From Myxococcota bacterium (lineage in GTDB: Bacteria > Myxococcota > XYA12-FULL-58-9 > JALHOP01): 64,000 nucleotides of DNA. The stretch is taken from the NCBI GenBank assembly GCA_041288095.1, contig JBGGMJ010000092.1:57-64056 (forward strand), written 5' to 3'. Positions 24,415-41,728 of this stretch are shown piece by piece; within the stretch, counting starts at the first letter, position 1, and each line of letters begins with the position of its first letter. The notes under the pieces were generated by a model that was not told where the DNA came from, did not search any database, and saw nothing but the letters and a program-made list of their open reading frames with translations. Both the position numbers and the translations under genes were made by a program.

Positions 24415-25902
24415 TCATCCGCCGGTGCCCTTTTCGCCCTCGTCTCGCTTCCGATCGGTCGCGTCCTCATCGGCGGCTTTCTCGATGGCCTTCGCCGACC
24501 AGCCCCCGCCAAGGGCCTGCACCAGGGCGACGGTGCCGGTGAGCTGGTTCTCGAGCACGGTGAGGGCGCTCTGCTCGTTGGTGAGCGCGGTTTGCTGCGC
24601 CGTGATCACCGCCGTGTAGTCGACGGTGCCGGCCTTGTAGCGGTTGGTCTGGATGCGCTCAGCCTCACGCGCCGCGTCGACGGCGCGTTGCTGGAACTGC
24701 GATTGCTCGACGAAGAGGTGCAAGCCGACGAGTTGGTCTTCGACCTGCTGCATCGCGGTGAGCGCGGTCTGGCGATAAGCAGCTACCGTTTGCTCGTATT
24801 GCTCGCGCGCGACCGTGACCTGCCCGGAGCGCCGGCCCCAGTCCCAGACCGTGCCCGCGAGGGTCGGTCCAATCGACCAGAAGAGACTCGCCGTATCGAA
24901 GAGTGACCCGAGCACGGATGACTGGTAACCCAACGACCCCGTGAGCGAGATGGTGGGAAAGTACGCCGCTATAGCGACACCGATCTGAGCATTGGCGGCG
25001 GCCATGCGGCGCTCGGCGGCGGCGACGTCCGGACGGCGCTCGAGCAACACCGACGGCAAGGTGATGGGGACTTCGGGGAGACTGCGCGGCATGTCCGCTA
25101 TGGCGATCGAGATCTCGGACGGCGGCTTGCCCACCAGCACCGCGATGGCGTGCTCGAGACGCGCGCGCTGCACTTTGATGCCGATGGATTGGGCGTGCGC
25201 GCTCTCGAGCTGCGTTTGCGCGAGCGACACGTCCGCTTTGGTGGCGATACCCGCGTCGTACTGATTCTTGGCGATAGTGTACGCGCGTCCATAAGCTTCG
25301 GCTGCGACCTCGAAGAGCCGCCGCTGCTCGTCGCGTGAGCGCAGCTGAAAGTAGGCGGTTGCGAGCTGCGACTGCGCCGAGAGCTTCGCGGAGGCAATGT
25401 CGGCGGCCGACGCTTGGGCTTCCGCCGCGTTGCTCTCGATGGTCCGCCGGATGCGGCCCCAGACGTCGAGCTCCCAGGTGATCCCGGTCGAGGCGTTGTA
25501 GATGGTGCGCGGACCGCCACCCGTGGTGCCGCCACCGACCGTGGCGCCGCCGACGTTGGTGCCTACCGCGCCGCTCGTTCGCCGTACGCCGCCGTTCACA
25601 TTGAGGGCCGGCAAGATGCCGGCTTTCGCGCTCTGCAACACTCCTCGCGCTTCACGATAGGCCGCTTCGGCTTGCTTCAAGTTCTGGTTCGACACCTCGA
25701 CCTGTCGCATGAGCTCGTCGAGCGTCGCATCGGCGAACACCGCCCACCAATCGCCGCGGTCGGCGTCGTCCGCGGGCTCGACGACCTTCCAACCTTCGAT
25801 CTCCTTGTAGCTCGGTGGTTCCGCCGCCTTCGGCTTGTCGTAATCGGGGCCGACCTTGCAGGCCGCGATAGCGAACAGTGAGATGAGCGCGATGCGTTTC
25901 AT
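24415..25902 (-). CDS. RND efflux outer membrane factor lipoprotein (NodT family)
   Basis: Lipobox SLFAIAAC followed by [10 protein letters not shown], and two OEP-like repeats. The ATG overlaps (ATGA) the stop of the upstream permease reading frame. Confidence 0.9.
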
Positions 25903-26042
25903 GCAGTCCTCGCGACGCGCTTCTCAGCGCGCTTGAGTCGCCATTTGTCGAGAGCCAGATAGACGATTGGCGTGGTGTAGAGCGTCAGCGCTTGGCTGAA
26001 GATCAAGCCGCCGACGATGGCGACGCCCAGTGGTTGTCGCAG
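25899..26042 (-). pseudogene. Detached C-terminal 47 codons of the MdtC-like permease, downstream of an in-frame TAG
   Basis: In the same frame directly after TAG (26045-26043) the sequence reads [47 protein letters not shown]. This is the conserved RND C-terminus (compare the paralogue ..[36 protein letters not shown]..). Confidence 0.65.
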
Positions 26043-29000
26043 CTAGGCGCCGTCACCACTGCGCAGGGCCAGCGGCAGCGCTCCCAGCAAGGCCGCGAGC
26101 GTCGTCATCATGATCGGCCGAAAACGCAGCAGGCAGGCTTCGCGGATCGCATCGTGCGGCGACAGCCCGCGATTGCGCTCGGCGTCGAGCGCGAAGTCCA
26201 CCATCATGATGGCGTTCTTCTTGACGATGCCGATGAGCAAGATGATGCCGATGAGCGCCATCAGGTTGAGATCCATACCGACCATGAGCAACGCGATGAG
26301 GGCGCCGACTCCCGCCGAGGGCAGCGTCGACAAGATGGTAATCGGGTGCACGTAGCTCTCGTAGAGCACGCCCAAGACGATGTAGACCGCGAGCAGGGCG
26401 CACAGAATGAGGATGGGCTGGTTCGAGAGAGAGTCGGCGAACGCTTTCGCGGACCCCAAGAATCCACCTTGGATGGTCGACGGTACGCTGATCTCCGCCA
26501 TCTTGGCGCGAATACGGGTGAGCGCGTCGCCGAGCGACGTGCCTGGCAGCAAGTTGAACGAGATGCTGGTGGCGACGAACAACCCTTGGTGATTGACCGA
26601 CAACGGCGTGTTGCTGAAGGTGCGCTCGGCAATCGCGGACAGCGGGATCATCGTGGCGCTGCTCGTGCTCACCGCCGACCCGGTCGACGCCGAGTTGCGG
26701 CTCACGCTCGCGACCTGGTTGGTGGCGCGGTTGCGCGCCGACTCGTCGATGGTCGCCGAGGTGTTCGTCGACACGAAGGTACCGGGCAGCGCATTGGTGC
26801 CGACCGAGCCACGGACCGCGCCGCCGCTGCTCGCGATGTAGATCTCGTCGAGCGCCTGCGGCGTGTCGCGGTACTTCTGCGCCACCTCCATCACCACGTG
26901 GTACTGATTGAGGGTGTTGTAGATCGTCGACACCTGGCGCTGGCCGAAAGCGTCGTAGAGGTTGTTGTCGACCTGCTGCACGGTGAGCCCGTAGCGTGAC
27001 GCGGTATCGCGGTCGATGTTGAGGCGCAGCTCGAGACCGCGGTCTTGGTTGTCGGACTCGACGTCGGCGAGCCCATCGATCGTGCGCAGGGCGCGCACGA
27101 TCTGTGGTGTCCACTCGCGGAGCTCCGCGAGGTTGTCGCCTTGCAAGGTGAATTGATAGAGGCCCGTGCCCGGGCGGCCGCCCATGCGGAACTCTTGCGC
27201 CGGTTGCAGAAAGAGCTGTGCACCCGCGACGTTCGCGAGCTTGCCGCGCAAACGACCGATGACCTGGTCGGCGGACATCTTGCGCTCCGCGAGCGGTCTC
27301 AGATTGGCGAACGTGAAGCCGCCGCCCGTGCCTTGCGCGAAGCCGACGACGCCGTCGATGGCGGGATCCTCCATCATGATACGTTGGGCTTCCGCGAACT
27401 TCTCGCGCAGCGCTTGGAACGAGATGCTCTGATCGGTGCGCAAATTGCCGAGGATGCGCCCGGTGTCCTGCTGGGGAAAAAATCCCTTGGGGATGACTCC
27501 ATAGAGGTAGACGTTGATCGCCACCGTCGCGACCAACGAGAGGCCGACGAGCTTCGGATGCGTCAACGCCCAGCCGAGAGTGCGCTGATAGAAGCGCGCC
27601 ATCGGTCCGAAGATGCGCTCGCCGATGCGGAAGGGAACACTGCTGTCTCCGCCATGGCGAAGCACGTAGGCGCACATCATCGGTGTCGTCGATAGCGACA
27701 CCACGAGCGACACCAGCACCGCGACCGACAAGACCACCGCGAACTCACGGAACAGTCGCCCGATGATGCCGCCCATCATGAGGATCGGCGTGAACACCGC
27801 GATGAGCGAGATGCTCATCGACATGACCGTGAAGCCGACCTCGGAGGCGCCCTGCAGCGCCGCTTGCATGCGCGACATGCCGGCTTCCATGTGGCGCGAG
27901 ACGTTCTCGAGTACCACCACCGCGTCATCGACGACGAACCCGGTGGCGACGGTGAGGGCCATGAGCGAGAGGTTGTTCAGACTGTAGTCGCACAGGTACA
28001 TGACGCCGAAGGTAGCGACGAGCGACACCGGCACGACGACGGCGGGGATGAGCGCCGAGCGCGGGTCTCGCAAGAACAACAGCACCACGCCAATCACCAG
28101 GATTACCGCGATGACGAGCGTGATCTCGACTTCGTGCAGCGAAGCGCGAATCGTCGCCGTGCGGTCGCTGACCGCCAGTAGCGTCATGTCGCTGGGAATG
28201 GCGGCTTGCAGCTCGGGCACGAGCGCACGCACGCGATCGACGGTCCCGATGATGTTGGCGCCGGGCTGGCGCGAGATGACGATGACGACGGCGCGTTGGC
28301 CGTTGTAGAGGCCGATGTTGCGCGTGTCTTCGACCGAATCGATGACCTCGGCGACGTCCGCGAGCGCGACCGCCGCGCCGTTGCGATACGCGATGACGAC
28401 GTCGTGGTAGTCCGCCGCCGTGCGTGCCTGATCATTCAGATAGATTTGATAGCTCTTGCCGTCGGCCTCGATCGCACCCTTAGGGGTGTTCGCGTTGGCG
28501 GACGAGAGAGCCGCGCGCACGTCTTCGAGTCCGATGCCGTACTTGAAGAGCGCGGTTGGGTTGAGCTCGACGCGCACCGCCGGCAGCGAGCTACCGCCGA
28601 CGCGGACGTCGCCCACGCCTTCGACCTGCGACAACTTCTGGCCGATGATGGTCGAGCCGGCGTCGTAGAGCTGACCTTGGCTGCGCGTCTGCGAGGTCAG
28701 CGCCAGCACCAGGATGGGTGCATCGGCGGGGTTCACCTTGCGGTACGTCGGATTGCTGCGCAGGGCCGCGGGTAGATCGGCGCGAGCCGCGTTGATGGCC
28801 GCTTGCACGTCGCGCGCGGCGCCGTCGATGGAGCGCGACAAGCCGAATTGGAGCGTGATGTTGGTCGAGCCGACGGTGCTGGACGAGGTCATCTCGGTGA
28901 CGTCGGCGATGCGGCCCAGGTAGCGCTCGAGCGGAGTCGCGACGCTCGCCGACACCGTCTCGGGGCTGGCGCCGGGGAGCTGCGCCCAGACGTTGATGGT

Positions 29001-29129
29001 CGGAAAATCCACCTGCGGCAGCGGCGATACCGGCAGCAGGAAGAACGCGACGATGCCGGCGAGCAGCAGACCGATGGTGAGCAGCGTCGTCGCCACGGGG
29101 CGCTTGATGAAGAGCGCCGACGGGTTCAC
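26043..29129 (-). CDS. RND multidrug efflux permease (MdtC/AcrB family), truncated by an in-frame amber codon
   Basis: 1028-aa, 12-TM RND permease ([25 protein letters not shown]..). The start overlaps the upstream permease stop. The reading frame continues past the TAG to 25899. Confidence 0.9.
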
Positions 29130-32100
29130 GCGGGCTCTCCCAGTTGGGTGTCCGTCGCGGCGGGCGACGACTTCCAGCGACGCGCCAAGCGATCGAAGTA
29201 CAGATAGATCACCGGCGTCGTGAACAGCGTGAGCACCTGTGACACCAAGAGCCCACCGACGATGGTGAGGCCGAGTGGATTGCGGAGCTCACTGCCCATG
29301 CCCTGACCGAGCATGAGCGGGAGGGCGCCGAAGAGCGCCGCGAAGGTGGTCATCATGATCGGACGGAAGCGCAACAGCGCCGCCTCGCGAATGGCCTCGT
29401 GCGGCGACCTGCCGTGCTCGCGCTCCGCTTCCAGCGCGAAGTCGATCATCATGATCGCGTTCTTCTTGACGATGCCGATGAGCAGCACGATGCCGATGAT
29501 GGCGATGACGCCGAGGTCCTTGCCGGCGAGCAAGAGCGCGAGCAACGCGCCGATGCCCGCGGACGGCAGCGTCGACAAGATGGTCACCGGATGGATGAAG
29601 CTTTCGTAGAGGACGCCGAGGATGATGTACATGGTGACGATCGCCGCGATCACCAAGATGAGCTCGTTCGCCAAAGCGGCCTGAAAGGCGAGCGCCGCGC
29701 CTTGGAACCGCGACACCACGCTCGCGGGCAGGCCGATCTCCGCCTCGACCTTGCGAATGGCATCGACGGCGGCGCCGAGCGAGACACCGGGCGCCAGGTT
29801 GAACGAGATGGTGGCCGCCGGGAACTGCGCGAGATGCGAGATTTGCAGCGCCACCGGGCGTTCTTCGACGCTCGCGATAGCGGACAACGGCACCTGACCC
29901 CCGGTCGCGGCGGGCAAATACAAGTTGTCGAGCGCGTTGACGGAGCGTTGAAACTCGGGAGCCGCTTCGAGAATGACGCGGTACTGGTTCGACTGCGAAT
30001 AGATGGTGCTGACGATGCGCTGGCCGAACGAGTCGTAGAGCGCGTTGCCGACGGTGGCTGGGCTTATGCCGAAGCGCGACGCGGTCGGGCGGTCGATTGT
30101 GATGTAGAGCGAACGGCCGCCGTTGGAGAGGTCACTCGCGACGTCGGCGAGCTGCGGCAGGTCGCGGAGCTTCTCGACGAGCCTTGGCGTCCAGACGTTG
30201 AGCTCGGTGAGCGACGCGTCTTGCAACGTGAGCTGGTACTGCGTGCGCGAGATGCGCGAATCGATCGTCAGATCCTGCACGGGTTGCAGATAGAGCGAGA
30301 TGCCAGGGATATCGCGGGCCCGGTCGGTGATGCGACGAACGATCTCCGCGGCCGTGGCGTCACGCTTACCGTGCTCCTTGAGCGAGATCTGCACGCGGCC
30401 CGTGTTGATGGTGGCATTGGTTCCGTCGATGCCCACGAAGGACGATAGGTTCTCGACGTCGGGATCCTCGAGAATGACGTCCGCCAAAGCGTGCTGGCGC
30501 TCGGCCATGGCGGCGAAGCCGATGGACTCGTCGGCTTCGGTGACGCCCTGAATGAGCCCAGTGTCCTGGACCGGGAAGAAGCCCTTGGGCACGACGAGAC
30601 AGAGCAGGGCCGTAAGCGCCACCGTCCCGACCGCGACGAGCAGGGTCATCCGTTGGCGCTCGAGCACCCAGTCGAGGGCCACCGCGTACTGCTCGACGAC
30701 CCAATCGAACCAGATCTGGATGCGCTTCTTCTTGGCGCCGTGACCATGGCTCTTCAAGAGCCGCGCGCACAGCATCGGCACCAGCGACAACGACACCACG
30801 GCCGAGATGAGAATGGTGACCGCGAGCGTGATCGCGAACTCGCGAAACAAGCGGCCGACGACGTCACCCATGAAGAGGAGAGGGATGAGCACGGCGATGA
30901 GCGACACCGTGAGCGAGATGATGGTGAAGCCGATCTGGCCGGCGCCCTTGAGCGCGGCTTCGAGCGGTGACTCGCCCTCCTCGAGGTAGCGGGCGATGTT
31001 CTCGATCATGACGATGGCGTCGTCGACCACGAAGCCGGTGGCGATGGTGAGCGCCATCAGCGATAGGTTATTGAGGCTGAAGCCGCAGGCGTACATCACA
31101 GCGAAGGTCCCGACGATCGACAGCGGCACCGACAAGCTCGGGATCAAGGTGGCGCGCAGGTCACCCAGGAACAGGTAGATGACCAAGACCACGAGCGCGA
31201 TCGACACGAGCAGCTCGAGTTGCACATCGTCGACCGAGGCGCGGATGGTCGTCGTACGGTCGGTGAGCACGTCGATGTCGATGCCCGCGGGCAGGTTGCT
31301 CCGCAATTGCGGCAGCAGCTCCTTGATGGCGTCGACCGTTTGGATGACGTTCGCGCCCGGCTGACGCTGAATGTTGAGAACGATGCCCGGCGTCTTGTCG
31401 ACCCAGGCAATCAGCTTCACGTTCTCGGCGTCTTGGGCGATCTCCGCCACGTCGGAGAGGCGGACGGGCGCGCCGTTGCGGTAGGCGATGACCAGGTCGC
31501 CGTAGGCCGCGGCGTTGGGCAGCTGATCGTTGGCGTTGATGGTGTAAGAGCGCAGCGGACCGTCGAGCGTGCCCTTCGGCGAGTTGACGTTGGCGTTGGC
31601 GATGGTGGTCCGCAGGTCGTCGATGGCGAGCCCGTAGCCGGCGAGGGCTCTGACGTTGGCGCGGATGCGCACGGCGGGGCGCTGCCCTCCGCCCATGCGG
31701 ACGATGCCGACGCCGGGGAGCTGTGAGATCTTCTGAGCGAGCCGGGTCTCGACGATGTCCTGCACCTGGGGGAGCGGCAGTGTCTTCGAGGTGGCGACCA
31801 AGGAGAGGATGGGCGCGTCGGCGGGATTCACCTTGGCGTAGACCGGCGGCGCCGGCAGATCGCTCGGCAACAGGTTACCCGCGGCGTTGATGGCCGCCTG
31901 CACCTCTTGCTCGGCGACGTCGAGCGCCATGTCCAGATTGAACTGCAGCGTGAGCACCGAGGCGCCCGCCGAGCTCGTGCTCGCCATCTGCGTCAAGCCG
32001 GGGATCTGGCCGAATGTACGCTCGAGCGGAGCGGTCACCGACGAGGTCATGACCTCCGCGGAAGCACCGGGATAGAAGGTGCTGATCTGGATGGTGGGAT

Positions 32101-32224
32101 AGTCGACCTGCGGTAGCGCCGAGATGGGGAGCTGGCGGTACGCGACGATGCCCACCAGCATGATCGCGACCATGAAGAGCGTCGTCGCGACCGGCCGGAG
32201 GATGAATGGCCGGGAGGGGATCAT
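29126..32224 (-). CDS. RND multidrug efflux permease (MdtB/AcrB family)
   Basis: 1032-aa RND permease ([25 protein letters not shown]..). It has the conserved C-terminal ..[36 protein letters not shown]. Confidence 0.92.
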
Positions 32225-33504
32225 TGGACCGGGCTTATGGCCTTCGGTGAGCGACGATCAGCGGTCGCGTTCCGGTCATCGGCGTTCGGCTCTCGGCCGT
32301 CGGCGCTCGGCGTTCGGCCATCGATCTTCGGCGCTTCCGATTTCGGCGCGTCCGATGTCATCACCTTGGCCCCGTCACGCAGACGATCGGTCCCCTCGAC
32401 GGCGACCTGCTCGCCACCGTCGAGACCCTGCAAAACGGCGATGCGGCCTTCGAACGCCGGTCCGAGCTTCACCGGCCGCGTCTTCGCCGTATCGCCTTCG
32501 ATGACGTACACGAACGTGCCGTCGGCGCCCCGCTGCACTCCCGCGGTCGGCATGATGACGGCGTTGCTCAGGGTGTCGACCACGATGCGGACGTTCACGA
32601 ACTGGTTCGGTGTGAGCGTCTCGTCGGCGTTCTCGAACATGGCGCGCATCTTCACGGTGCCGGTGGTGGTGTCGATCACGTTGTCGATCGTGGAGAGGGT
32701 GCCCTCTGCGAGCGCGACGTCTCCGCTCCGATCGTAGACGGTCACTTTGAGCTGGGCGCCCGAGCGGAACCGCTTGGAGACCGCCGCGAGCTCGCCTTCG
32801 GGGACCGGGAAGACGACGGAGATCGGATGCAGCTGCGTGATGACGACGATGCCGGCGGCATCACCGGCCGCGACGTAGTTGCCGACGTCGACCTTGCGCA
32901 AACCGACACGACCATCGACCGGCGCCGTGATGCGGGCGAACGACACGTTCACCCGCGCCGCGGCGATCTGACCCTGGTCTGACTTGAGCGTCGCCTGCGC
33001 CTGGCGGACCGTCGCGCGCTGGGTGTCGAGCTGCTGCCGCGAGACCGAGTCTTCTTCGATGAGCTTCTCGTAGCGGCTGAGATCCATCTCGGCGTTTTTG
33101 AGCGCTGCTTCATCGCGAGCGAGCGCACCCTCTGCTTGGTCGAGAGCGGCCTGATATGCCCGCGGATCGATCTGCGCGAGCAGGTCGCCCTTCTTGACGT
33201 CCTGGCCTTCGCGGAAGCCGATCTGGGTGATCTGACCGGCCACCTGACTGCGGACGGTGACGGTAGCGAGCGAGGTCACGGTGCCCAGCGCGTCGAGCAT
33301 GATGGGCAGGTCACCCCGTTCGGCGATCGCCGTGCGTACGGGAGTGGGACCTTGGGGCGGCTTCTTGCCGCGCCCTTCGGCTGCGGACTGGATGCGGCGG
33401 ACGATGAGGACGACCGCGAGGACGGCCACGAGGACCGGTATGGCAATGCGTAGATACTTCTTCATCAACGCGCCAATAGGCAGGTTTTGGCGCAGTTGAA
33501 CCAT
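32221..33504 (-). CDS. RND efflux periplasmic adaptor (membrane fusion protein, MdtA family)
   Basis: N-terminal TM anchor, then biotinyl-lipoyl/hairpin/beta-barrel MFP pattern (..[45 protein letters not shown]..). An alternative start is ATG 33465 (MKKYL). Confidence 0.9.
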
Positions 33505-33607
33505 GGTTCTGGGGGTCTCGGATTACAAGGGGGAACAGCGTTAATAACAATGAAGCCAAGGGTTTCGCGCGTCTGCGACATCGCGGCGCACAGATGGCAT
33601 TGCCCTC

Positions 33608-35098
33608 GTGGCATCGGAAAATAGGCGGACCGTGGCGCGCGCGATCCCGATAACCGGGCTCCACCAGAGGTTTATCGTGATCAAGCGCATCGAACCCATC
33701 GCTGCTGTCCAACCAGTCCAGGCCGCGGGCGCGACCCCGACCTACAGCACCGCCACCAATCCGCCGAGCATCCGCTTCAACATCCACCCGCATACGCTGA
33801 CGCTCACCGGCGAACAGATCGAGGCCGCCGCCGCCAAGCCCGCCGGTACCGTGACCGTCTTCGCGGTCGGCGGGAATCACCCGCACAACCTGAACCTCAC
33901 CACCGAGGAAGCGCAGGCGCTCGTGCGTGACGGCAAGGTGCAGTCGAAGGCTGACGGCGGCCACACGCACATCGTCAATTTCCAACGACAGGCGAGCGGC
34001 GATGTCACCGCCCTGATCGAGCCGGCGGCACCCGCGGCTCCCGGTTCACTTCGTCGCGCGATCGCTTCGCAGGCGACGTCCGGCTTCCCCCAGGGCGGCA
34101 TCACCATCAAGGACCCGCTGCACTACTTCGTGCGCTCGTCGGTCGATGGCCAGTACATGGGCCGCGGCTTCAAGGCCGGAGAACAGCGCGCGATGGTGGT
34201 CACGGACACCGCCACGGGCTCGACCTTCACTTTCGACTTCGGCGCCTACGACCCGTCGTTCGCCAAGACGTTCCTGTACTTCCAGGGCTTCGACGAGAAC
34301 AAAAAGGAGATGTGCTTCGTCGTGCCGATGAGCTTTTTCAAGGAGCAGGCGGCGTCGCTCTTGCCGACCGCTAACGCGGTCACGGGCCCGGTGCACAAGA
34401 CCTTCACGCTCGAGTGGTTCGCAAAGCACGCGCCCAACAAGCTCACGCGCATCCCGGGGGTCTTGGTCTATCAGGACCTGCCGCTCCATGGCCGCTTCGC
34501 CGTGCAGTGCACGGGTCAGGTTTGGGATGAGGCAGTGAAGCCGCCGACCGACCTCGAATACATTCCGAAGGCGGGGAGCTTCGCCGACACCGACGAGATC
34601 TGGCTGACGCCGCTTTACACGCCGACGACGCCCATCAAGATCCCGTCACCGCTGGTCGGCAACGTGCAGCTCAATGACCAAGGCGACCGGGTGGTCGCGC
34701 AGCGCATCGTCGGCTCGGGCGCCGAGGCCAAGTGCGAGTTCGTGGTCTACGAAGTTCGCGGCGAAGTAGCGCCCGGCGGTACTCCGAGCTTGCACGAGGT
34801 CTACAAGCTCGCCGCCCAAGCGGACAAGGCCGACATGCTCGGCCACAACCTCCTCACCTTCGAGCGCCGCGCTGGCGCCGAGCGCTCCGAGGTCGTGCTG
34901 CACGACATCCGCAAGGGCAAGGACATCATCCTCGCGTCCGCGAAACCGGACTGCGTCTACAAGTTCCCGCACTTCGTGGCCGAGCCCAACGGCGGCGGCA
35001 TCGAAGTCCGCTTCGTCGAGCAGCAATGGACGAAGGACGCCGCGGGCAACTACACGGGTGCGACGAACGTCTTCAAGAGCGTCCGCATCGTCAACTGA
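33608..35098 (+). CDS. Hypothetical protein with N-terminal His-x-His motifs
   Basis: Long ORF on the opposite strand between the RND operon and the sigma gene. Motifs are IHPHTLTLTGEQIEAA, GNHPHNLNLTTEEAQAL and GGHTHIVNF. The real start may be GTG 33677 (VIKRIEP). No signal peptide and no family were recognised. Confidence 0.55.
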   Translation: MASENRRTVARAIPITGLHQRFIVIKRIEPIAAVQPVQAAGATPTYSTATNPPSIRFNIHPHTLTLTGEQIEAAAAKPAGTVTVFAVGGNHPHNLNLTTEEAQALVRDGKVQSKADGGHTHIVNFQRQASGDVTALIEPAAPAAPGSLRRAIASQATSGFPQGGITIKDPLHYFVRSSVDGQYMGRGFKAGEQRAMVVTDTATGSTFTFDFGAYDPSFAKTFLYFQGFDENKKEMCFVVPMSFFKEQAASLLPTANAVTGPVHKTFTLEWFAKHAPNKLTRIPGVLVYQDLPLHGRFAVQCTGQVWDEAVKPPTDLEYIPKAGSFADTDEIWLTPLYTPTTPIKIPSPLVGNVQLNDQGDRVVAQRIVGSGAEAKCEFVVYEVRGEVAPGGTPSLHEVYKLAAQADKADMLGHNLLTFERRAGAERSEVVLHDIRKGKDIILASAKPDCVYKFPHFVAEPNGGGIEVRFVEQQWTKDAAGNYTGATNVFKSVRIVN

Positions 35099-35131: not shown

Positions 35132-36016
35132 CTATGATCCGAGCGAGTCTTCGAGCAGCCTATGCAGCTTGTCGATGACGCGGGCGTGCAGTCGACTCGT
35201 CCATGACTTCGACAAGCCGAGCTTCTCGCCGACTTCCTGCAGCGACATCTCTTTGTAGTAGTACATCTCGAGGAGCTGACGTTCCTGCTCCGAGAGCTTC
35301 TTGATGGTCTCGCGAACGAGGGACCGCGCTTGCTCGAGGCCGAGATTTTCCTCGGCGCCGGGCGAACCGTCGTCCTTGATCTGCAGACCTTCGGTGCCGT
35401 CGATCGTCGTGATGTAGACCGCCGCGAGGCCTTGAACCGCCGACGCGAGGTCTTGGACGGCGTGCTCGAAGGGGTTCGCCGGTGCTTCGGTGCCCGACTC
35501 TTGCGCCGCCGCGACCTGCGACAAGTACTCGTTGGCGCGCTCTTCGAAGCGGGCGCGCGCGTACTCGCTGCGGCTCATCCAGCCCATGCCGCGGAGGCCG
35601 TCGTAGATGGCGCCGCGGATGCGGTAGTACGCGAACGTCATGAAGTTCGCGCCGAACTGCGGGTCGTAGCGGTCGGCCGCTTCGAGCAGACCGATCATGC
35701 CGTATTCGACGAGATCCTCGAAGTCGATCTCCTTGGCGACCGTCTTCTTGATCTTGCCCGCGATGGAGCGGACGTACGGCATGTACTTTTCGATCAGGAC
35801 CTGACGAGGCAGGGCCTTGGGATCGTCGCTCGGCGACGCTCCGCCCTTCTCGATGGTTTTGTCGGCAGCCTTGTCCGCGACCTTACCGCTGGTTGCCTCG
35901 GTGCCGGCGCGCATGGTCTCGCTCGCGTCACCCTTGGTGGCTGCCGCTCCGGCCGCCGCAGCGGACGCGGGAACTTTGCCGGCTGGCTTCTTTGCTTTCG
36001 CCCCAGACTCGCTCAT
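35132..36016 (-). CDS. fliA: FliA/WhiG-type (sigma-28-like) RNA polymerase sigma factor with A/K-rich N-terminal extension
   Basis: Region 2: ..LVEYGMIGLLEAADRYDPQFGANFMTFAYYRIRGAIYDGLRGMGWMSRS (compare E. coli FliA ..AVQRIRGAMLDELRSRDWVPRS). Region 4: ..LLEMYYYKEMSLQEVGEKLGLSKSWTSRLHARVIDKLH (compare ..[35 protein letters not shown]). Confidence 0.8.
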   Translation of the reverse strand: MSESGAKAKKPAGKVPASAAAAGAAATKGDASETMRAGTEATSGKVADKAADKTIEKGGASPSDDPKALPRQVLIEKYMPYVRSIAGKIKKTVAKEIDFEDLVEYGMIGLLEAADRYDPQFGANFMTFAYYRIRGAIYDGLRGMGWMSRSEYARARFEERANEYLSQVAAAQESGTEAPANPFEHAVQDLASAVQGLAAVYITTIDGTEGLQIKDDGSPGAEENLGLEQARSLVRETIKKLSEQERQLLEMYYYKEMSLQEVGEKLGLSKSWTSRLHARVIDKLHRLLEDSLGS

Positions 36017-36128
36017 TCGAACTCAGGCTCCCAGGACAGGCTTATGGCTCGTGGGACATTACACCCCACACGCCTGCAAGGCGAGCGCCGTCGACGCTCT
36101 CCTTGTGACACGGGTACGTTTGACCGCT

Positions 36129-36608
36129 TTAACGTTGGACCGGCGATCGTAGGGTCCAGTCGGTGACTTCATCGACGAGCTGAGCCAAGACCGGCACCCC
36201 GTCGAGCTGCGACGCAATGGCGTCGTAGAGGGTTTCGAGCTCGCGCTCGTCCGCCTGGTCGAAGATCTTTCCGAACTTCTTCCCGCGGATGATGCACTGG
36301 GCGAACATACGGGCCCGTGCTTTGCGGTCGGCGCTCGGATTCTTGCGCAGCAAGATGGCGAATTGCTCGGCGACCTGGGCGAGCTGCTGGTTCGTGAACT
36401 GGATGGGCCCGACGTTCGGCCTGTTCTTCGTAGCGATGCCGGCAAGACCTTGCGCGATGTTGGCCTTGACGAAGCTGTCCATCACCTTCTCGGCGCCGGC
36501 TCCCTTGGCGGAAGTCTCCGTGGTCTTGGCGTCGGTCTTCTCGGCGCGATCGGCTTGTCCAGGCTGCGTATTGCCGACCTGAGGGCGGCCATCACCAATC
36601 TTCGTCAT
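36129..36608 (-). CDS. Hypothetical 159-aa protein with disordered N-terminus (candidate secreted regulator/anti-sigma; speculative)
   Basis: ORF located between the TPR chaperone gene and the sigma factor gene. The N-terminal ~45 aa are low in complexity (MTKIGDGRPQVGNTQPGQADRAEKTDAKTTETSAKGAG..). No family was recognised. Confidence 0.5.
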   Translation of the reverse strand: MTKIGDGRPQVGNTQPGQADRAEKTDAKTTETSAKGAGAEKVMDSFVKANIAQGLAGIATKNRPNVGPIQFTNQQLAQVAEQFAILLRKNPSADRKARARMFAQCIIRGKKFGKIFDQADERELETLYDAIASQLDGVPVLAQLVDEVTDWTLRSPVQR

Positions 36609-36738
36609 AAGTTCTCCGGAAAAGTCAGGAGTCGCAGGCTGCGTTTGTCGGAACGCTTCGCACTGCGGTCATGGGGCCGTATGGCTTGTCTTGTCAACGT
36701 GGTCCACGCGAATAGCGCGGAATGCTAGCACCAACAGG

Positions 36739-37155
36739 TCAACCGAAGATACCGAGCTCGTGCGCTTCTTTCAGGTACTTCGCGAACTGACCCGCGGGCC
36801 CTTCGGGCTCGAGAGCGATTGCCTTGTCGACCGCTTGAACGGCGTCCTTCGGCTTCTTGAGGAAGAAGAGCGCCTCGCCGATCGAGGCGTGTGCCGCGGC
36901 GGAGCCCGGATTGAGCTCGGCGGCCTTCTGATGCGCTTTGAGCGCCGGCGTGAAGCGGCCCATCGAGAAGTAGAGGTTGCCGAGCGCGAGGTGCGGGACC
37001 TCGCTGTGCGGGATGAGCGCCGAGACCCCCGCGAAGACCTCTTCGGCTTCCTTGTTCTTCCCGAGCTCCATGTAGAGGTAGCCGGCCTCGAGGAGCAGGG
37101 TTACGTCGCGTTGGGGGACCGGAATAATGCCCTGGATGATGAGATCTTCAGCCAT
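36739..37155 (-). CDS. TPR-repeat protein, T3SS class II chaperone-like (LcrH/SycD/CesD type)
   Basis: 138 aa with three TPR units (..GYLYMELGKNKEAEEVFAGV..LGNLYFSMGRFTPALKAHQKAAELNPGSAAAHASIGEALFFLKKPKDAVQAVDKAIALEP). It lies directly downstream of the needle-like gene. Confidence 0.6.
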   Translation of the reverse strand: MAEDLIIQGIIPVPQRDVTLLLEAGYLYMELGKNKEAEEVFAGVSALIPHSEVPHLALGNLYFSMGRFTPALKAHQKAAELNPGSAAAHASIGEALFFLKKPKDAVQAVDKAIALEPEGPAGQFAKYLKEAHELGIFG

Positions 37156-37242
37156 GTGACGTCGTTATACTCCCTGGTCGGCTTGGCGTGGCAAGGTACA
37201 TAAACGAGTTTGGGGGGTGTGGGTTGCGGGGCCACGAGGTCG

Positions 37243-37274
37243 CAAAAAAAACGGGGCCCCAATGGAGCCCCGTT
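37243..37274 (-). terminator. Rho-independent terminator after the needle-like gene
   Basis: The minus-strand transcript reads CGGGGC-UCCAUUGGG-GCCCCG followed by U8 (plus-strand A-run 37244-37251). It lies 56 nt after the stop at 37330. Confidence 0.7.
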
Positions 37275-37329
37275 TTGACGAACGATGAGAAGTCGCGAGT
37301 GGCGGGCGCGGCCGGAGCCGCGCGCTCTA

Positions 37330-37887
37330 TTAACGAACGTTGTTGATAGAGTTCTTCGCCGTATCGTGCTTCGTCTTCATGATGTTCGACAGCGTCGTGA
37401 ACTGACGGTTGTCGGCTTGCATGTTCTGCTGCAGGCCCAAGTACTGCAGGTTGAAGCTCTGGTTGAGCTCCTGCATGCGCTTGGTCTCTTGGAGCAGAAT
37501 GGCTGACGAGTCACCCGAGGCTGCGAGACCGTCGAGCGCCGTGTTGCCGGTGGCATAGCCGCCGGTGCCGGCCATTGCACCACCGCCGGTGACCAGACCG
37601 CCGCCGCTCGACATGGTGCCGACGCTGGCGCCGCTGATGCCCGTGGCCCCTTGGCCGGTGGCGTGCGACTTGAGGGTACCTACACCCGAGATGGCCGCGG
37701 AGAGAACCGCGCCGCCGGGGATGTACGGAGCCGCCAACTGTCCGGCGTTGAGCACCGCATTGGTGGTGCGCGAAAGGCCGGTGGACAGGACGCTGCCGAA
37801 GTCCGTCTTAGGAGCCTGACGGGCACGGCTCTGGTCGATATCGACCCGAAGTCCTGACTGTTGTGGCTGGTCAATCTTGGAATCCAT
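37330..37887 (-). CDS. Needle-filament family protein (SctF/MxiH/PrgI-like C-terminus) with long Gly/Ala/Ser-rich N-terminal extension
   Basis: The last 33 aa, QQNMQADNRQFTTLSNIMKTKHDTAKNSINNVR, align without gaps to the MxiH C-terminus QSKLSEYTLYRNAQSNTVKVIKDVDAAIIQNFR. Shared positions are Q1, SN15-16, K19, D23, I29, N31 and terminal R. AGGAG RBS is present. Length is 185 aa, versus ~80 aa for classical needle subunits. Confidence 0.55.
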   Translation of the reverse strand: MDSKIDQPQQSGLRVDIDQSRARQAPKTDFGSVLSTGLSRTTNAVLNAGQLAAPYIPGGAVLSAAISGVGTLKSHATGQGATGISGASVGTMSSGGGLVTGGGAMAGTGGYATGNTALDGLAASGDSSAILLQETKRMQELNQSFNLQYLGLQQNMQADNRQFTTLSNIMKTKHDTAKNSINNVR

Positions 37888-38003
37888 CGCCGACTTCTCC
37901 TCTCAAAACTGCTGCTAGGCTACTCGCTAGCACGAGTCGATTATTGGTAGCGCCGCGCGTGCTAACTACTCGCTGCGCTTTCGTTCGTCTTTGCTGCCTA
38001 ACC

Positions 38004-38030
38004 TTATCGATGGGGCCGGATTCGGGTTGT
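38004..38030 (-). promoter_or_regulatory. Candidate sigma-28-like promoter of the needle-like gene (ACAACC-N15-CGATAA)
   Basis: The minus strand reads TC-ACAACC-CGAATCCGGCCCCAT-CGATAA-G, 117 nt upstream of the ATG at 37887. The architecture is the same as at 24263-24237. Confidence 0.45.
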
Positions 38031-38152
38031 GAAAATGACGTGCCAAGCGTCAGTTCGAATGTACGCAACAAAATTTAGTGTAGGCGTAGCGGGCACTTAC
38101 GAACACGCGTGAGCACGGTCGCGCTGTCAGCCTGTCGCGTAACATGTTGATT

Positions 38153-38488
38153 TTACTTCGTTCCTTGGGTTTCTAGCTCAGCCTTTGTCTGGAACAAATA
38201 CTCCATCAGATCGGCGGCGCGCTCGACCGCGATCATGGCTTTTTTGACTGCCGCCTTGTCCTTCTGGGCCTTCTTGTCCTCGTCGAAGGTCGCCAGACCG
38301 TCGAGGATGTCGGTCAGCTTGGCGTTGATGGTGTCGTGGGTCTCGTTCTCGAGGATGCGCTCGATGCGCGCAAACCCCAGCGAGCGCTCTTCTTCGGGCT
38401 CGGCCTTCTGTGGACCTCGGCGTTGCACCGTTGGCTTGCGCGTGTCGGCGATCTTGAAGGACTGAAGATTCCCGCCTTTGTTGGCCAT
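38153..38488 (-). CDS. Hypothetical small charged protein (111 aa)
   Basis: ATG with GGAG upstream. The product is helical and K/E-rich (..FDEDKKAQKDKAAVKKAMIAVERAADLMEYLF..). No family was recognised. Confidence 0.5.
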   Translation of the reverse strand: MANKGGNLQSFKIADTRKPTVQRRGPQKAEPEEERSLGFARIERILENETHDTINAKLTDILDGLATFDEDKKAQKDKAAVKKAMIAVERAADLMEYLFQTKAELETQGTK

Positions 38489-39156: not shown

Positions 39157-39860
39157 CGGGACTCCAGCCCTTGAGAGCTGATCTCGAAAGCAATGCGGTC
39201 GGGATAGTCGCGCCCGCCACCGCTGGTCGCCAAGACGATGATGCCGACGGTGGCGAGGAGCGCCGCGCCGCCGGCGGCGTACCAGACCCAACGTTTGCAG
39301 TAGAACGGTTGGTCGCTCTCACCAGCCTCGCAGCGCGCGAGAAAACCCTGCTGCGTATGCTGGGCCGTCACCATGGGCGCCTCTTCGGGGGCGGTGCCGT
39401 GCTCCTCGACGACGACCGGGCTCACCATGGCGTCCGGCAGGGGACACTCGGGCGCGCGCTTGACCGCTCGAGCGAACAGCGGCGCGTCTGGACTGCCTAC
39501 CCGCGAAGGTCCGTTGCCGTTCTCGTCGAACACCTCGACGAAATACTCGAGCGCGCCCGTCAGCTCGTTCTTCGCGATGGTGGCGCGCCAGAGCTCGCCG
39601 TCGCGGGTGAAGTTGACGTGCTTCCAGGTCTTGTCGCTCGCCAGGTGGTAGACGAGCTTGGGCTCATAGAGCTCCGATTGATCGGCGAAGCGCGCCACGA
39701 CTGTGAATGGCCGATCTTTCTGGAAGGCCTCGCAGGGCTTGAAGCCGATCACCGGCGGCGCCGTATCGGCGTTTTGTTCGGCCCGAGCCCTCGCGGGCAG
39801 GACGGCGGTCAAAGAGGCGAGCACGAGCGCGGCCGCGCGACGCATGCGAGCGAAGCTCAT
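39153..39860 (-). CDS. Hypothetical secreted protein with C-terminal TM anchor
   Basis: Signal peptide MSFARMRRAAALVLASLTAVLPARARA and C-terminal TM segment WVWYAAGGAALLATVGIIVLA. The ATG overlaps the kinase stop (ATGA at 39860-39857). The track ORF 5' extension to 40478 was rejected. Confidence 0.55.
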   Translation of the reverse strand: MSFARMRRAAALVLASLTAVLPARARAEQNADTAPPVIGFKPCEAFQKDRPFTVVARFADQSELYEPKLVYHLASDKTWKHVNFTRDGELWRATIAKNELTGALEYFVEVFDENGNGPSRVGSPDAPLFARAVKRAPECPLPDAMVSPVVVEEHGTAPEEAPMVTAQHTQQGFLARCEAGESDQPFYCKRWVWYAAGGAALLATVGIIVLATSGGGRDYPDRIAFEISSQGLESR

Positions 39861-41728
39861 CGGGTTCGCCGCAGCGTCACATGTAGTCTTCGTCCTTCCT
39901 TCGGGTTTGCGAGGTCGCAGGTGACCATGCCTTCCACGGCGCGCACCGTCTGCGGTGACCGGCCCGAGGTGGCGTTGTTGCAAGTCACGATGGCCCAGGG
40001 GTCGGGCTCGAGCGTGAAGCTCATCACGTCGTCGAGCACGGCATAGCGGACAGTGAGCGCGAACGGATCGGCGGCGACGTCGCCGCCGGAGCCGAGCACG
40101 AAATCGCCGCCGTTGTCGGCGACGCGCACGCTCTGACCTCTGCCTCCCCGGACCAACTTGAGTGAGGGCTCGGTGACGATCTGCACGCTCCCGAGGCCCG
40201 AGCTCCCCGACTTGCCGTGCGTATCGCCGGTGCCTTTTGCGTCCTTCTTGTCGGACTTTTCGCGGGACGGGCTGCCGACCGCCGGAGCGTTGCGGCCCGA
40301 CTTGATGACCATCTCGTCGATGCGCGGCCGCATGGGTTCCGCGGCCTTGGCCTTCTCGATGAGGCGGCGCACGGCGGGATCGTTGACGTCGACATCGGCG
40401 CGCGGGAGGCCCAAGATTCGCCGCGTTTCTTCCATGGCGACGGCGTGACGATGGGCGATGGTGGCCCGCGTGATCCATACCGAGCCGGCGACAGTGACGA
40501 CCACGATCATCGCCAGGGCGACGAAAAACGGCAGGCGTGATTGCACCATGAGCCCAGCCTCTTCGGCCAGGGTGCGTCCGCTATTGCGACGCTCACGCGC
40601 GATGGTGCTGCCGTTCGTGTCCATGGGATCGAGCGAGGACGCTCGCGACGCCGCGTTGACGTCGGCGGCCTCATCGGGTGTGAGCTGGCGCGTGTGGCGG
40701 TCGCGCGGCACCCCGCGCTGTTGCCCTCTCTCCTTGCTGAGCTGGTACTCGGTTTGGGTGTTCTCGAGAGCGCTCGCGATGATGCGCCGCTCGCTGGCGA
40801 TCTGATCCTCGAAGATGTCGCCCATATAGGCGGCGAGCGGTGTCGGCGGCTGCTCGAGGTCCCCGCTGCGCAGCAGGGCATGAAGGTCGTCGGCGAGCTC
40901 GCTACAGTCGCTATAGCGGTCACTCAGCTTCTTTGCGAGAGCCTTGGCGATGATCGGATCGAAGGGGGCGAGCTTGCGGCTGTGTTGCGATACCGGCGGT
41001 GGCTCGAGGCGCTGGATGGCGTCCATCGAGAGCACGGCATTCGACTTCACGAAGGGATTGCTGCCGGTGAGCGTCTCGTAGAGGCAGATACCGACCGAGA
41101 AGATGTCGCTGCGCTTGTCGAGCGGTTGGGCGGCGCTCTGCTCCGGCGACATGTAGACGAACTTGCCCTTGATGGTGCCGGTTTCGGTGCGCTCCCCCGA
41201 AGAACCGCTCTTGGCGATGCCGAAGTCGATGAGCTTCAGGTCTCCGCTATAGGAGATCAGCAGATTCGCCGGGTTGACGTCGCGGTGGATGATCGACAAC
41301 TCGGTGCCCGAGAGGCCGGTGGCGTTGTGCGCGAACGAGAGACCCGAGCACAGGTCCGCTATCACGGTAGCGGCATGGGCCGCCGGCACCGACTCACCCA
41401 GCTTGCGGGCACGATCGATGACCTCGCGCAGCGGCTTACCCGCGACGTACTCCATGGCGAGGTAGTAGGACTGCTCGATCTCGCCCATCTCGTAGATCTG
41501 CACGATGTGCGGATGCGAGAGCTGCGCGGCGATGCGCGCCTCGGCGAAGAACATGTTGACGAACTGATCGTTCGCCGTGTGGTGCGGCAGGATCCGTTTG
41601 ATGACCAGCAGCTTCTTGAAGCCAACGGGGCCACGAAGCTTCGCAAGGAAGATCTCTCCCATGCCGCCCATCGCGAGCCGCTTGATCAGGAAGTACTTCC
41701 CGTATGTGGTGCCTTCGCCGCCGATCAT
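39857..41728 (-). CDS. Hanks-type Ser/Thr protein kinase with TM segment and C-terminal extracytoplasmic domain
   Basis: Kinase motifs GGMGEIFLAK (G-loop), VIKRI (Lys), HRDVNPANLL (catalytic loop), DFGIAK and SPEQ. A TM segment LPFFVALAMIVVVTVAGSVWI follows. Confidence 0.9.
   Translation of the reverse strand: MIGGEGTTYGKYFLIKRLAMGGMGEIFLAKLRGPVGFKKLLVIKRILPHHTANDQFVNMFFAEARIAAQLSHPHIVQIYEMGEIEQSYYLAMEYVAGKPLREVIDRARKLGESVPAAHAATVIADLCSGLSFAHNATGLSGTELSIIHRDVNPANLLISYSGDLKLIDFGIAKSGSSGERTETGTIKGKFVYMSPEQSAAQPLDKRSDIFSVGICLYETLTGSNPFVKSNAVLSMDAIQRLEPPPVSQHSRKLAPFDPIIAKALAKKLSDRYSDCSELADDLHALLRSGDLEQPPTPLAAYMGDIFEDQIASERRIIASALENTQTEYQLSKERGQQRGVPRDRHTRQLTPDEAADVNAASRASSLDPMDTNGSTIARERRNSGRTLAEEAGLMVQSRLPFFVALAMIVVVTVAGSVWITRATIAHRHAVAMEETRRILGLPRADVDVNDPAVRRLIEKAKAAEPMRPRIDEMVIKSGRNAPAVGSPSREKSDKKDAKGTGDTHGKSGSSGLGSVQIVTEPSLKLVRGGRGQSVRVADNGGDFVLGSGGDVAADPFALTVRYAVLDDVMSFTLEPDPWAIVTCNNATSGRSPQTVRAVEGMVTCDLANPKEGRRLHVTLRRTR

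Follow-up and report, generated by a model that had tools for sequence, protein, structure and literature searches.

Results

A Conserved Gene Trio in a Type III Secretion Locus

The DNA analyzed here, hereafter the window, is a stretch of 64,000 nt from contig JBGGMJ010000092.1 of an uncultured soil Myxococcota, known from a metagenome-assembled genome (MAG) of 5.85 Mb that is 90% complete (assembly GCA_041288095.1). Its minus strand carries a Myxococcota-type type III secretion system (T3SS) locus, and our subject is a trio of genes within it: a FliA/WhiG-like sigma factor of 294 aa (35132–36016, minus strand; Pfam Sigma70_r2 and Sigma70_r4, TIGR02479), a 159-aa protein that we call p159 (36129–36608, minus strand), and a tetratricopeptide repeat (TPR) protein of 138 aa with three repeats (36739–37155, minus strand), which matches many TPR Pfam families and is a candidate T3SS chaperone. 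As the preliminary description of this DNA had it, the three open reading frames (ORFs) lie in the same orientation; each occupies a different reading frame, their third-position GC content is 0.81 to 0.84, and their GC by codon position is typical of real genes. The surrounding T3SS locus comprises sctT, sctS, sctR, FliO-like, FliM/N-like, and FliK-like genes, sctO, sctN, sctL, a FliG-like gene, sctJ, and a 163-aa needle/rod-family gene; we detected no translocator gene among them. An RND efflux operon and a 496-aa gene on the opposite strand (24415–35098) split the locus; since the sigma gene of relatives directly abuts the needle/rod-sctJ core, the RND operon represents a local insertion.

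The order TPR gene, p159, and sigma gene, adjacent to each other and on one strand, was kept in 19 of 19 nonredundant p159-bearing loci with both flanks available, always beside T3SS genes and down to p159 identities of 23 to 30%. These loci came from genomes, metagenomes, and Logan assemblies and were reached via either p159 or the sigma gene (a metagenome locus search with the profile of p159 alignment A1 gave 10 loci); three more loci are cut off at p159 by the end of the contig. The genes are often translationally coupled: p159 and the sigma gene overlap by 4 nt in loci L022, L025, and L033 and are 3 to 40 nt apart in L036, L001, L003, L007, L023, L034, L035, L040, and L041, while the TPR gene and p159 overlap by 4 nt in L023; spacers of 100 to 180 nt occur only in the window's genus and a few others, the TPR–p159 spacer of this genus measuring 130 to 179 nt. 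Directly after the sigma gene, most lineages have the needle/rod gene, sctJ, the FliG-like gene, sctL, sctN, and sctO. A second needle-family gene, encoding 185 aa and preceding the trio in the window, is missing from L023 and L024, and the trio is intact in both. Of 22 genomes of the same order, 20 carry p159, each as a single copy; none of the 19 Myxococcota sampled from outside the order has it. Of the three proteins, p159 diverges most, with a pairwise mean of 0.52, against 0.32 (TPR protein) and 0.24 (sigma factor). The module is ancient within one Myxococcota order, and a full-text literature search returned no paper describing it.

A Divergent FliA/WhiG-Family Sigma Factor

The sigma factor consists of a variable, disordered N-terminal extension of about 70 aa followed by regions 2 to 4. 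Its best family is TIGR02479 (FliA_WhiG), with an alignment over positions 1 to 223 of the 224 in the model and a score of 163.7 bits, below the curated cutoff of 189.6. On the same model, a congener's true flagellar FliA reaches 214.7 bits and the orthologous T3SS sigma of a distant locus (L026) 157.5. The closest relatives in the Protein Data Bank (PDB) are FliA of Pseudomonas aeruginosa (98 bits), WhiG of Streptomyces (92), sigma-28 of Aquifex (88), and FliA of Escherichia coli (83), far above the SigB- and SigF-type sigmas at 52 to 54 bits. Judging by these scores and relatives, the T3SS sigma is, at the level of sequence, a diverged paralogue within the FliA/WhiG family that shares about 33% identity with the flagellar FliA of its own lineage; its first assignment as FliA/WhiG-like is upheld, and the motifs quoted in support, RIRGAIYDGLRGMGWMSRS and SKSWTSRLHARVIDKL, are present. 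It scores only 94 bits on NF004572, the NCBI equivalog "RNA polymerase sigma factor sigma-28", which we assume to represent chlamydial sigma-28. Orthologues of 216 to 312 aa are 62 to 100% identical across more than 120 clusters in the order, and regions 2.4 and 4.2 are almost invariant even where p159 identity falls to about 30 to 38%.

p159 Founds a New Protein Family

p159 had no Pfam or NCBIfam match at E < 0.1, and a Pfam/NCBIfam scan of 49 members of its family gave no family that was matched consistently. A word-indexed search recovered 26 close relatives and a full hidden Markov model search of 1.84 billion representatives 62; none exceeds 178 aa, and most of the full-length ones have 142 to 178 aa. 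By sequence, p159 is a member of no known family and founds a new one of about 160 aa. The alignments (A1 and A2) reveal a conserved extreme N terminus, M-(T/S)-x-I-G-G-x-P-P, then a variable, low-complexity, disordered stretch of 35 to 60 aa, a helical body with conserved R95, R98, and A99, and a nearly invariant C-terminal amphipathic helix, SP(V/F)xAQLVD(D/E)VT. In an AlphaFold2 monomer model built from 18 sequences, with a predicted local distance difference test score (pLDDT) of 63 overall, residues 1 to 36 are disordered, the helices of residues 37 to 136 reach about 75 to 83, and the invariant C-terminal helix only 45 to 59, as is expected for a segment that folds on binding. The N terminus MTKIGDGRPQVGNTQPGQADRAEKTDAKTTE, called disordered in the preliminary description, is thus present and predicted to be so, and the gross build of the model, a disordered N terminus and a helical core, would fit the proposed type of exported regulator.

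The more specific suggestion that p159 belongs to the FlgM family failed. It has no match to PF04316 or TIGR03824; FlgM does not appear in the 25 listed families (of 61) from the scan of the 49 family members; and aligning the p159 family (A2) with 16 FlgMs of relatives by hhalign gave a probability of 0.7%. True FlgMs of the lineage score 29 to 47 bits. The tip M-(T/S)-x-I-G does recall the MKI start of the FlgMs in relatives. p159 is thus no homologue of FlgM, and what the T3SS conserves is not the flagellar FlgM/FliA pair itself. Membership in the YopR-core family (PF09025, T3SS_needle_reg) was likewise rejected: the profile had no match in the genome at E ≤ 10, and it is not among the same 25 families listed of 61. 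Gene-fusion (Rosetta stone) evidence for a p159–sigma link was sought and not found, the relatives of p159 being at most 178 aa long and sigma orthologues 216 to 312 aa.

Among the related loci, p159 and the sigma factor share one frame in L027, L026, and L036, and the natural read-through product of L027, with two stops read as Gly, was folded with AlphaFold2 as a single-chain fusion; its p159 and sigma share 66% and 87% identity, respectively, with their counterparts in the window. The window itself offers no such read-through, its genes being in different frames and p159 as well as the sigma gene containing in-frame CGG codons; a TPR–p159 or needle–TPR–p159 fusion would be possible in L007, L005, and L036. 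The linker consists of 51 junk residues and the sigma's own disordered N terminus of about 60 aa, and the alignment combined the 3 natural fusions with 59 sequences of p159 and 12 of the sigma. Here the p159 core has a pLDDT of 84 to 95, sigma regions 2 and 4 about 90 to 97, and the C-terminal helix of p159 80 to 87, a gain over the monomer that is confounded, as it may reflect docking or simply the deeper alignment. In a Foldseek search, the sigma part of the model matched sigma-28/FlgM, WhiG/RsiG, and holoenzyme sigmas alike, at a TM score of about 0.3.

The TPR Protein

That the third gene encodes a TPR protein is confirmed, while its proposed LcrH/SycD-like chaperone identity received weak, subthreshold support: the protein scores 37.4 bits on LcrH_SycD (TIGR02552; cutoff 104.8), 26 bits on SctY, and 23.2 bits on CdsG (NF052304; cutoff 170). 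By sequence, it is otherwise a generic consensus TPR protein, and its best PDB matches are designed consensus TPRs. In the window, as in most loci, its gene comes directly after that of the 185-aa needle-family protein; it persists where the needle gene is absent (L023). The gene has no recognizable Shine–Dalgarno sequence (window 37156–37245), and an element TTGCCA-N17/18-(A)GTATAA, missed by a consensus promoter scan, stops about 9 nt short of the TPR ATG; from these sequence features, the TPR mRNA may be nearly leaderless.

Conserved Promoter Motifs before Two Needle-Family Genes

Two genes for exported needle-family proteins are candidate targets of the sigma factor. The first, next to the trio, encodes the 185-aa protein with a Gly-rich N-terminal extension and a needle-like C terminus (37330–37887, minus strand); the second encodes the 163-aa needle/inner-rod-family protein (SctI/SctF-like; 23635–24126, minus strand) directly upstream of sctJ, whose orthologues carry PF09392 (T3SS_needle_F) and, in relatives, directly follow the sigma gene. 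The motif ACAACC-N15-CGATAA occurs exactly twice in the window, both times on the minus strand, in intergenic DNA, and 5′ of these two genes (38004–38030 and 24237–24263); with 12 specified bases, about 0.008 exact chance matches are expected. In 11 divergent loci, nCAACC-N15-CGATAA lies upstream of the orthologous genes, at a distance of 48 to 117 nt in all but one of these loci, L003, where the gene start is uncertain and the distance is 216 nt. The copy upstream of the 185-aa needle gene is conserved in L003 to L005, L007, L008, L031, L034, L036, and L040, those in L003 and L036 having one further mismatch in the −35 CAACC and that in L003 a 14-nt spacer. The sigma-28-like promoters previously suggested for both needle-family genes are therefore borne out as conserved motifs, and the motif suggests that the T3SS sigma would read GCCGATAA-type −10 promoters with a spacing of about 15 nt. 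Conserved promoters before genes of exported needle-family proteins follow the logic of a secretion checkpoint. No sigma-28-like motif that could mediate autoregulation was found 5′ of the TPR–p159–sigma unit in the window or the related loci examined, and a sigma-70 consensus scan of the region found no promoter, although the same scan also missed a real terminator.

That terminator, a hairpin followed by a T8 run (37243–37275, minus strand; −26 kcal/mol, z = −4.1), is predicted to close the 185-aa needle-like gene and to separate it from the TPR–p159–sigma unit. Evidence of expression comes from contigs of a soil metatranscriptome (run X10) representing a relative about 90 to 93% identical, for which contig depth is a crude measure. 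The 185-aa needle gene (window 37304–37944) has the highest depth of the region, 24 to 46 vs. 5 to 12 for p159 and the sigma gene; its coverage stops at the predicted promoter and at the terminator, where the depth falls to zero. The uneven pattern argues against carryover of DNA and, as the needle coverage ends at both predicted signals, this T3SS needle gene is actively expressed in soil. One contig (35885–36396), from a relative about 92% identical, covers part of p159, the whole spacer, and part of the sigma gene, showing that the two are cotranscribed in this close relative.

Flagella and Other FliA-Family Sigma Factors in the Lineage

Myxococcota are usually regarded as nonflagellated, and the preliminary description had placed the sigma factor in a type of organism without a flagellum. 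This premise did not survive: all 3 congeners and 14 of 21 other genomes of the order encode flagellin, the former together with five to six rod/hook genes and a strong FlgM. Across related Myxococcota genomes, flagellin was present in 25 of 41, and flagella appear common in this part of the phylum. The complete flagellar cluster of one congener (L057; G002:C2:137000-156000) contains flhA, flhF, fleN, fliA, flgF, flgG, flgA, flgH, flgI, flgJ, flgM, flgN, flgK, flgL, flagellin, fliD, and fliS. The window's own MAG has no flagellin, no rod/hook genes, and a single FlhA/SctV, which may reflect a real loss or the failure of binning to recover one cluster of about 35 kb.

A second FliA-like sigma of this genome (275 aa; 166 bits on TIGR02479) is encoded on another contig (C127:21744-22853; L021:9745-10854, plus strand), among housekeeping genes and distant from all flagellar and T3SS clusters. 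The sigma gene is followed after about 40 nt by that of an 80-aa FlgM-family protein that scores 31 bits on PF04316, above the Pfam cutoff, and a subthreshold 29 bits on TIGR03824 (cutoff 40.75). Genomes of the same genus carry this pair as well as the flagellar FliA/FlgM pair, whose FlgM gene lies about 5 kb from fliA within one flagellar cluster. Pairwise identities among the three FliA-family paralogues are 28 to 34%, with 28 to 31% between the C127 sigma and the T3SS sigma. Thus, each of the lineage's other two FliA-family sigmas has a FlgM-family gene nearby; the T3SS sigma has p159 instead. Of the same-order genomes without flagellin, all six keep p159, so the module is independent of flagella, and five of the six have no FlgM-family match, so FlgM is not the general partner of the T3SS sigma.

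In the congener, flagellin and flgM are preceded by a related but distinct motif, CAAGG-N15-CGATG(A/C); the candidate class-3 promoters read CAAGG-N15-CGATGA 5′ of flagellin and CAAGG-N15-CGATGC 5′ of flgM (L057:12449-12476 and L057:9366-9392). As the flagellar and T3SS motifs (CAAGG vs. CAACC-N15-CGATAA) differ in both hexamers, they suggest two insulated sigma/promoter pairs in one lineage.

Discussion

The trio probably ties the expression of needle genes to secretion. In the mechanism that we envisage, the FliA/WhiG-like sigma would transcribe the two needle-family genes from the nCAACC-N15-CGATAA promoters; p159, made together with the sigma factor, would hold it inactive, most likely through its invariant C-terminal amphipathic helix; and p159 would itself be a substrate of the T3SS, with the disordered N terminus as the signal and the TPR protein as the chaperone. 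Once the export apparatus works, p159 would leave the cell, the sigma factor would be freed, and needle subunits would be made. The pairing of sigma and promoters, the binding of p159 to the sigma factor and of the TPR protein to p159, and the export of p159 are what we infer from gene order, conservation, and motifs. That p159 is an exported, chaperoned antagonist of this sigma, by analogy with FlgM/FliA and BtrA/BtrS, seems to us the most economical reading, though one that falls short of an even chance.

FlgM/FliA is the secreted anti-sigma checkpoint of flagella, in which sigma-28 itself chaperones FlgM. The likeness lies in a FliA/WhiG-type sigma, in CGATAA-type −10 elements before genes of exported, filament-like subunits, in a small adjacent protein with a disordered N terminus and a helical C-terminal part, and in an export apparatus that could serve as the sensor. 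The differences are as many: p159 is nonhomologous to FlgM, about 60 aa longer, encoded upstream rather than downstream of the sigma factor, and preceded by a TPR protein; the −35 element is CAACC, not TAAA or CAAGG; and the setting is a nonflagellar T3SS in a lineage where true FlgM/FliA pairs coexist. The principle of a secreted anti-sigma in a nonflagellar T3SS is not new, as Bordetella has the T3SS sigma BtrS, its secreted anti-sigma BtrA (BspR), and the chaperone BtcB, which is needed for export of the anti-sigma (PMC10732220). There too, a nonflagellar T3SS has a dedicated sigma, and p159 and the TPR protein may parallel the anti-sigma and its chaperone; however, BtrS is an ECF sigma and not of the FliA type, BtcB belongs to the CesT family and is not a TPR protein, and BtrA is unrelated to p159. 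What is new here is a FliA-type sigma with a non-FlgM partner family in the earliest-branching nonflagellar T3SS lineage, beside genuine FliA/FlgM pairs. A non-FlgM helical anti-sigma is also known for a FliA/WhiG sigma in Streptomyces, where RsiG partners WhiG, and WhiG–RsiG is among the best structural matches of our sigma factor; RsiG, in contrast, needs c-di-GMP and is not exported, and inspection of p159 revealed no RsiG-type ExxxSxxRxxxQxxxD motif pair.

Several results weigh against p159 as the antagonist. It has no Pfam, NCBIfam, or FlgM-profile similarity, as the hhalign probability also indicates, and no PDB relative by profile (A1 and A2) or by Foldseek on the monomer model, the best PDB matches being designed helical bundles at E-values of 0.7 to 3. 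The L027 fusion reached a predicted TM score of 0.39 for the single chain and showed no interpretable interface, and the sigma factor in it adopts an arrangement resembling neither the anti-sigma-bound nor the holoenzyme form (TM score of about 0.3). Mirror-tree analysis and partial correlation do not favor p159–sigma over p159–TPR coevolution, all pairs having r = 0.76 to 0.79. In one locus with a sigma 69% identical (L039), the slot (L039:4606-4944) holds an unrecognizable 112-aa protein with a Pro-rich N terminus, either an extremely diverged p159 or a replacement. In the metatranscriptome, the depth over the TPR gene is about zero while p159 and the sigma gene are covered, and the TPR gene of this genus may not share their transcript. 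To these comes the order of the genes, which is the strength of the first rival explanation.

In that explanation, the genes form a needle-assembly module without an anti-sigma role. p111, a conserved small protein of 111 aa (38153–38488, minus strand) that precedes the 185-aa needle-like gene, would be the positional equivalent of SctE/YscE; the needle protein, the TPR protein, and p159 would fill the slots of SctF, SctG, and YscH/YopR; the TPR protein and p111 would chaperone the needle subunit, p159 would be an early substrate controlling needle polymerization, and the sigma gene would merely reside in the operon, its product being controlled by other means. The comparison is with the Yersinia virC gene set, reportedly the subject of a 1995 paper by Allaoui et al., whose order is yscE-F-G-H-I-J-K-L. 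YscG is the TPR-like needle chaperone of Yersinia, and YopR is a protein of about 165 aa with a helical core. Our order p111, needle, TPR, p159, [sigma], needle/rod, sctJ, fliG/sctK-like, and sctL is colinear with it, sharing a needle, a TPR-like chaperone, an approximately 160-aa protein with a helical core, an inner rod, and sctJ. p159 thus sits in the YopR slot, between those of sctG and sctI, and has about the right length with, in the model, a disordered N terminus and a helical core. As YscH is YopR, an early secreted substrate that interacts with YscN and is required for needle polymerization (PMC3565153), the proposed role would have a precedent. In the window (23635–24126 and 35132–38488) and in L001, L003, L007, L036, and L041, the sigma gene is the only extra relative to ysc. 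The shared layout points to an old, conserved operon plan common to the basal Myxococcota-type and the derived T3SS families.

The needle-assembly explanation further draws on the weak CdsG and SctY matches of the TPR protein and on the lack of a predicted complex of p159 with the sigma factor. Yet there is no detectable sequence similarity to the Ysc proteins (PF09025 has no match in the genome and none that is consistent among p159 members; SctY is subthreshold, and the CdsG score of 23 bits compares with a cutoff of 170), and Ysc operons have no sigma gene. Moreover, L023 and L024 have lost no part of the trio along with the 185-aa needle gene, L023 even having TPR gene and p159 overlapping, and p159 is coupled to the sigma gene more often than to anything else. 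We consider this explanation in its strict form possible but on the doubtful side; it would account in purely structural terms for two genes of the trio. A YopR-like position is, at the same time, compatible with p159 as an exported antagonist, as the example of FlgM, an anti-sigma that is itself exported, shows.

A second explanation makes the free TPR chaperone the regulator: once export has removed the client that titrates it, p159 and/or the needle protein, the TPR protein would act on the sigma factor, as a coactivator or by relieving inhibition, and p159 would be a sensor substrate only. The model for such free-chaperone regulation is IpgC–MxiE and SicA–InvF, the class II TPR chaperones being established coactivators in Shigella and Salmonella. 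In its favor, a gene for a TPR chaperone-like protein always comes together with those for a small, part-disordered protein and a transcription factor, and the order of antagonist, middle protein, and sigma resembles the known rsbV-rsbW-sigB and spoIIAA-AB-sigF. Known chaperone coactivators partner AraC-family regulators and not sigmas, however; the TPR protein here is generic, with no T3SS-specific signal above threshold; and the TPR–p159 spacer of 130 to 179 nt in the genus comes with little coverage of TPR transcripts. We judge this explanation improbable. Finally, it is very improbable that p159 is a positive accessory or stabilizer of the sigma factor, or a passenger of operon inertia, with the C127 FlgM-like protein as the true antagonist of the T3SS sigma: although that FlgM-family gene lies beside a second FliA-like sigma outside any flagellar cluster, and the T3SS sigma keeps FliA-like regions 2 and 4, five genomes of the order have the module without any FlgM-family match, the C127 FlgM-like gene has a coupled sigma of its own, only 28 to 31% identical to that of the T3SS, and the order-wide conservation of p159 with its invariant C-terminal helix argues for a specific function.

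If p159 is an exported antagonist, it would represent a second, independent invention of a FlgM-like checkpoint. A bolder form of this reading, in which p159 is a new exported non-FlgM anti-sigma family, the TPR protein both export chaperone and anti-anti-sigma, and the earliest-branching nonflagellar T3SS lineage has kept the flagellar "class 3" checkpoint (the FliA paralogue, the CGATAA promoters, and the export-triggered release) with the antagonist rebuilt from a YopR-slot substrate, is one that we regard as conceivable but rather unlikely. Three FliA-type sigmas in one lineage, with their own partners and distinct −35 elements, are also a natural case of regulatory insulation after duplication. 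Nonflagellar T3SSs are thought to derive from flagella, with the Myxococcota type branching first (PMC3459982); a FliA paralogue fixed in a T3SS locus would show that the flagellar regulatory circuit was partly carried over with the structural genes.

The exported-antagonist reading would further bear on Chlamydia, from which no p159 homologue is known. There, a FliA-family sigma is found where the only complete type III machine is nonflagellar, and the secreted anti-sigma-28 with a chaperone as anti-anti-sigma on which authors have speculated has the architecture suggested here (PMC10597470). The differences are that chlamydial fliA is not in a needle operon and that its regulon comprises hctB and tsp, not needle genes. 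If true, our reading would supply a concrete model for the chlamydial anti-sigma-28 and a search template for it: a TPR chaperone, a part-disordered protein of about 160 aa, and a sigma-28-type sigma (PMC10597470).

Among the neighboring genes, p111 has no Pfam or NCBIfam match and is present in most related loci; upstream of it lie a 260-aa ORF and a Ser/Thr kinase. Neither sctU nor sctV was found within the 64-kb window; the genome's only FlhA/SctV gene is on another contig than the remaining T3SS genes (C31:3248-8564; L038), adjoining a PP2C-type phosphatase-like ORF and an RpoH-like sigma, both named from their translated N termini and not from family searches, the latter with 69.9 bits on TIGR02479. 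The Ser/Thr protein kinase gene (window 39857–41728), a few genes upstream of the module, is conserved in most related loci (also in L001, L003, L007, and L036) and recalls Pkn5, the kinase in the chlamydial T3SS cluster.

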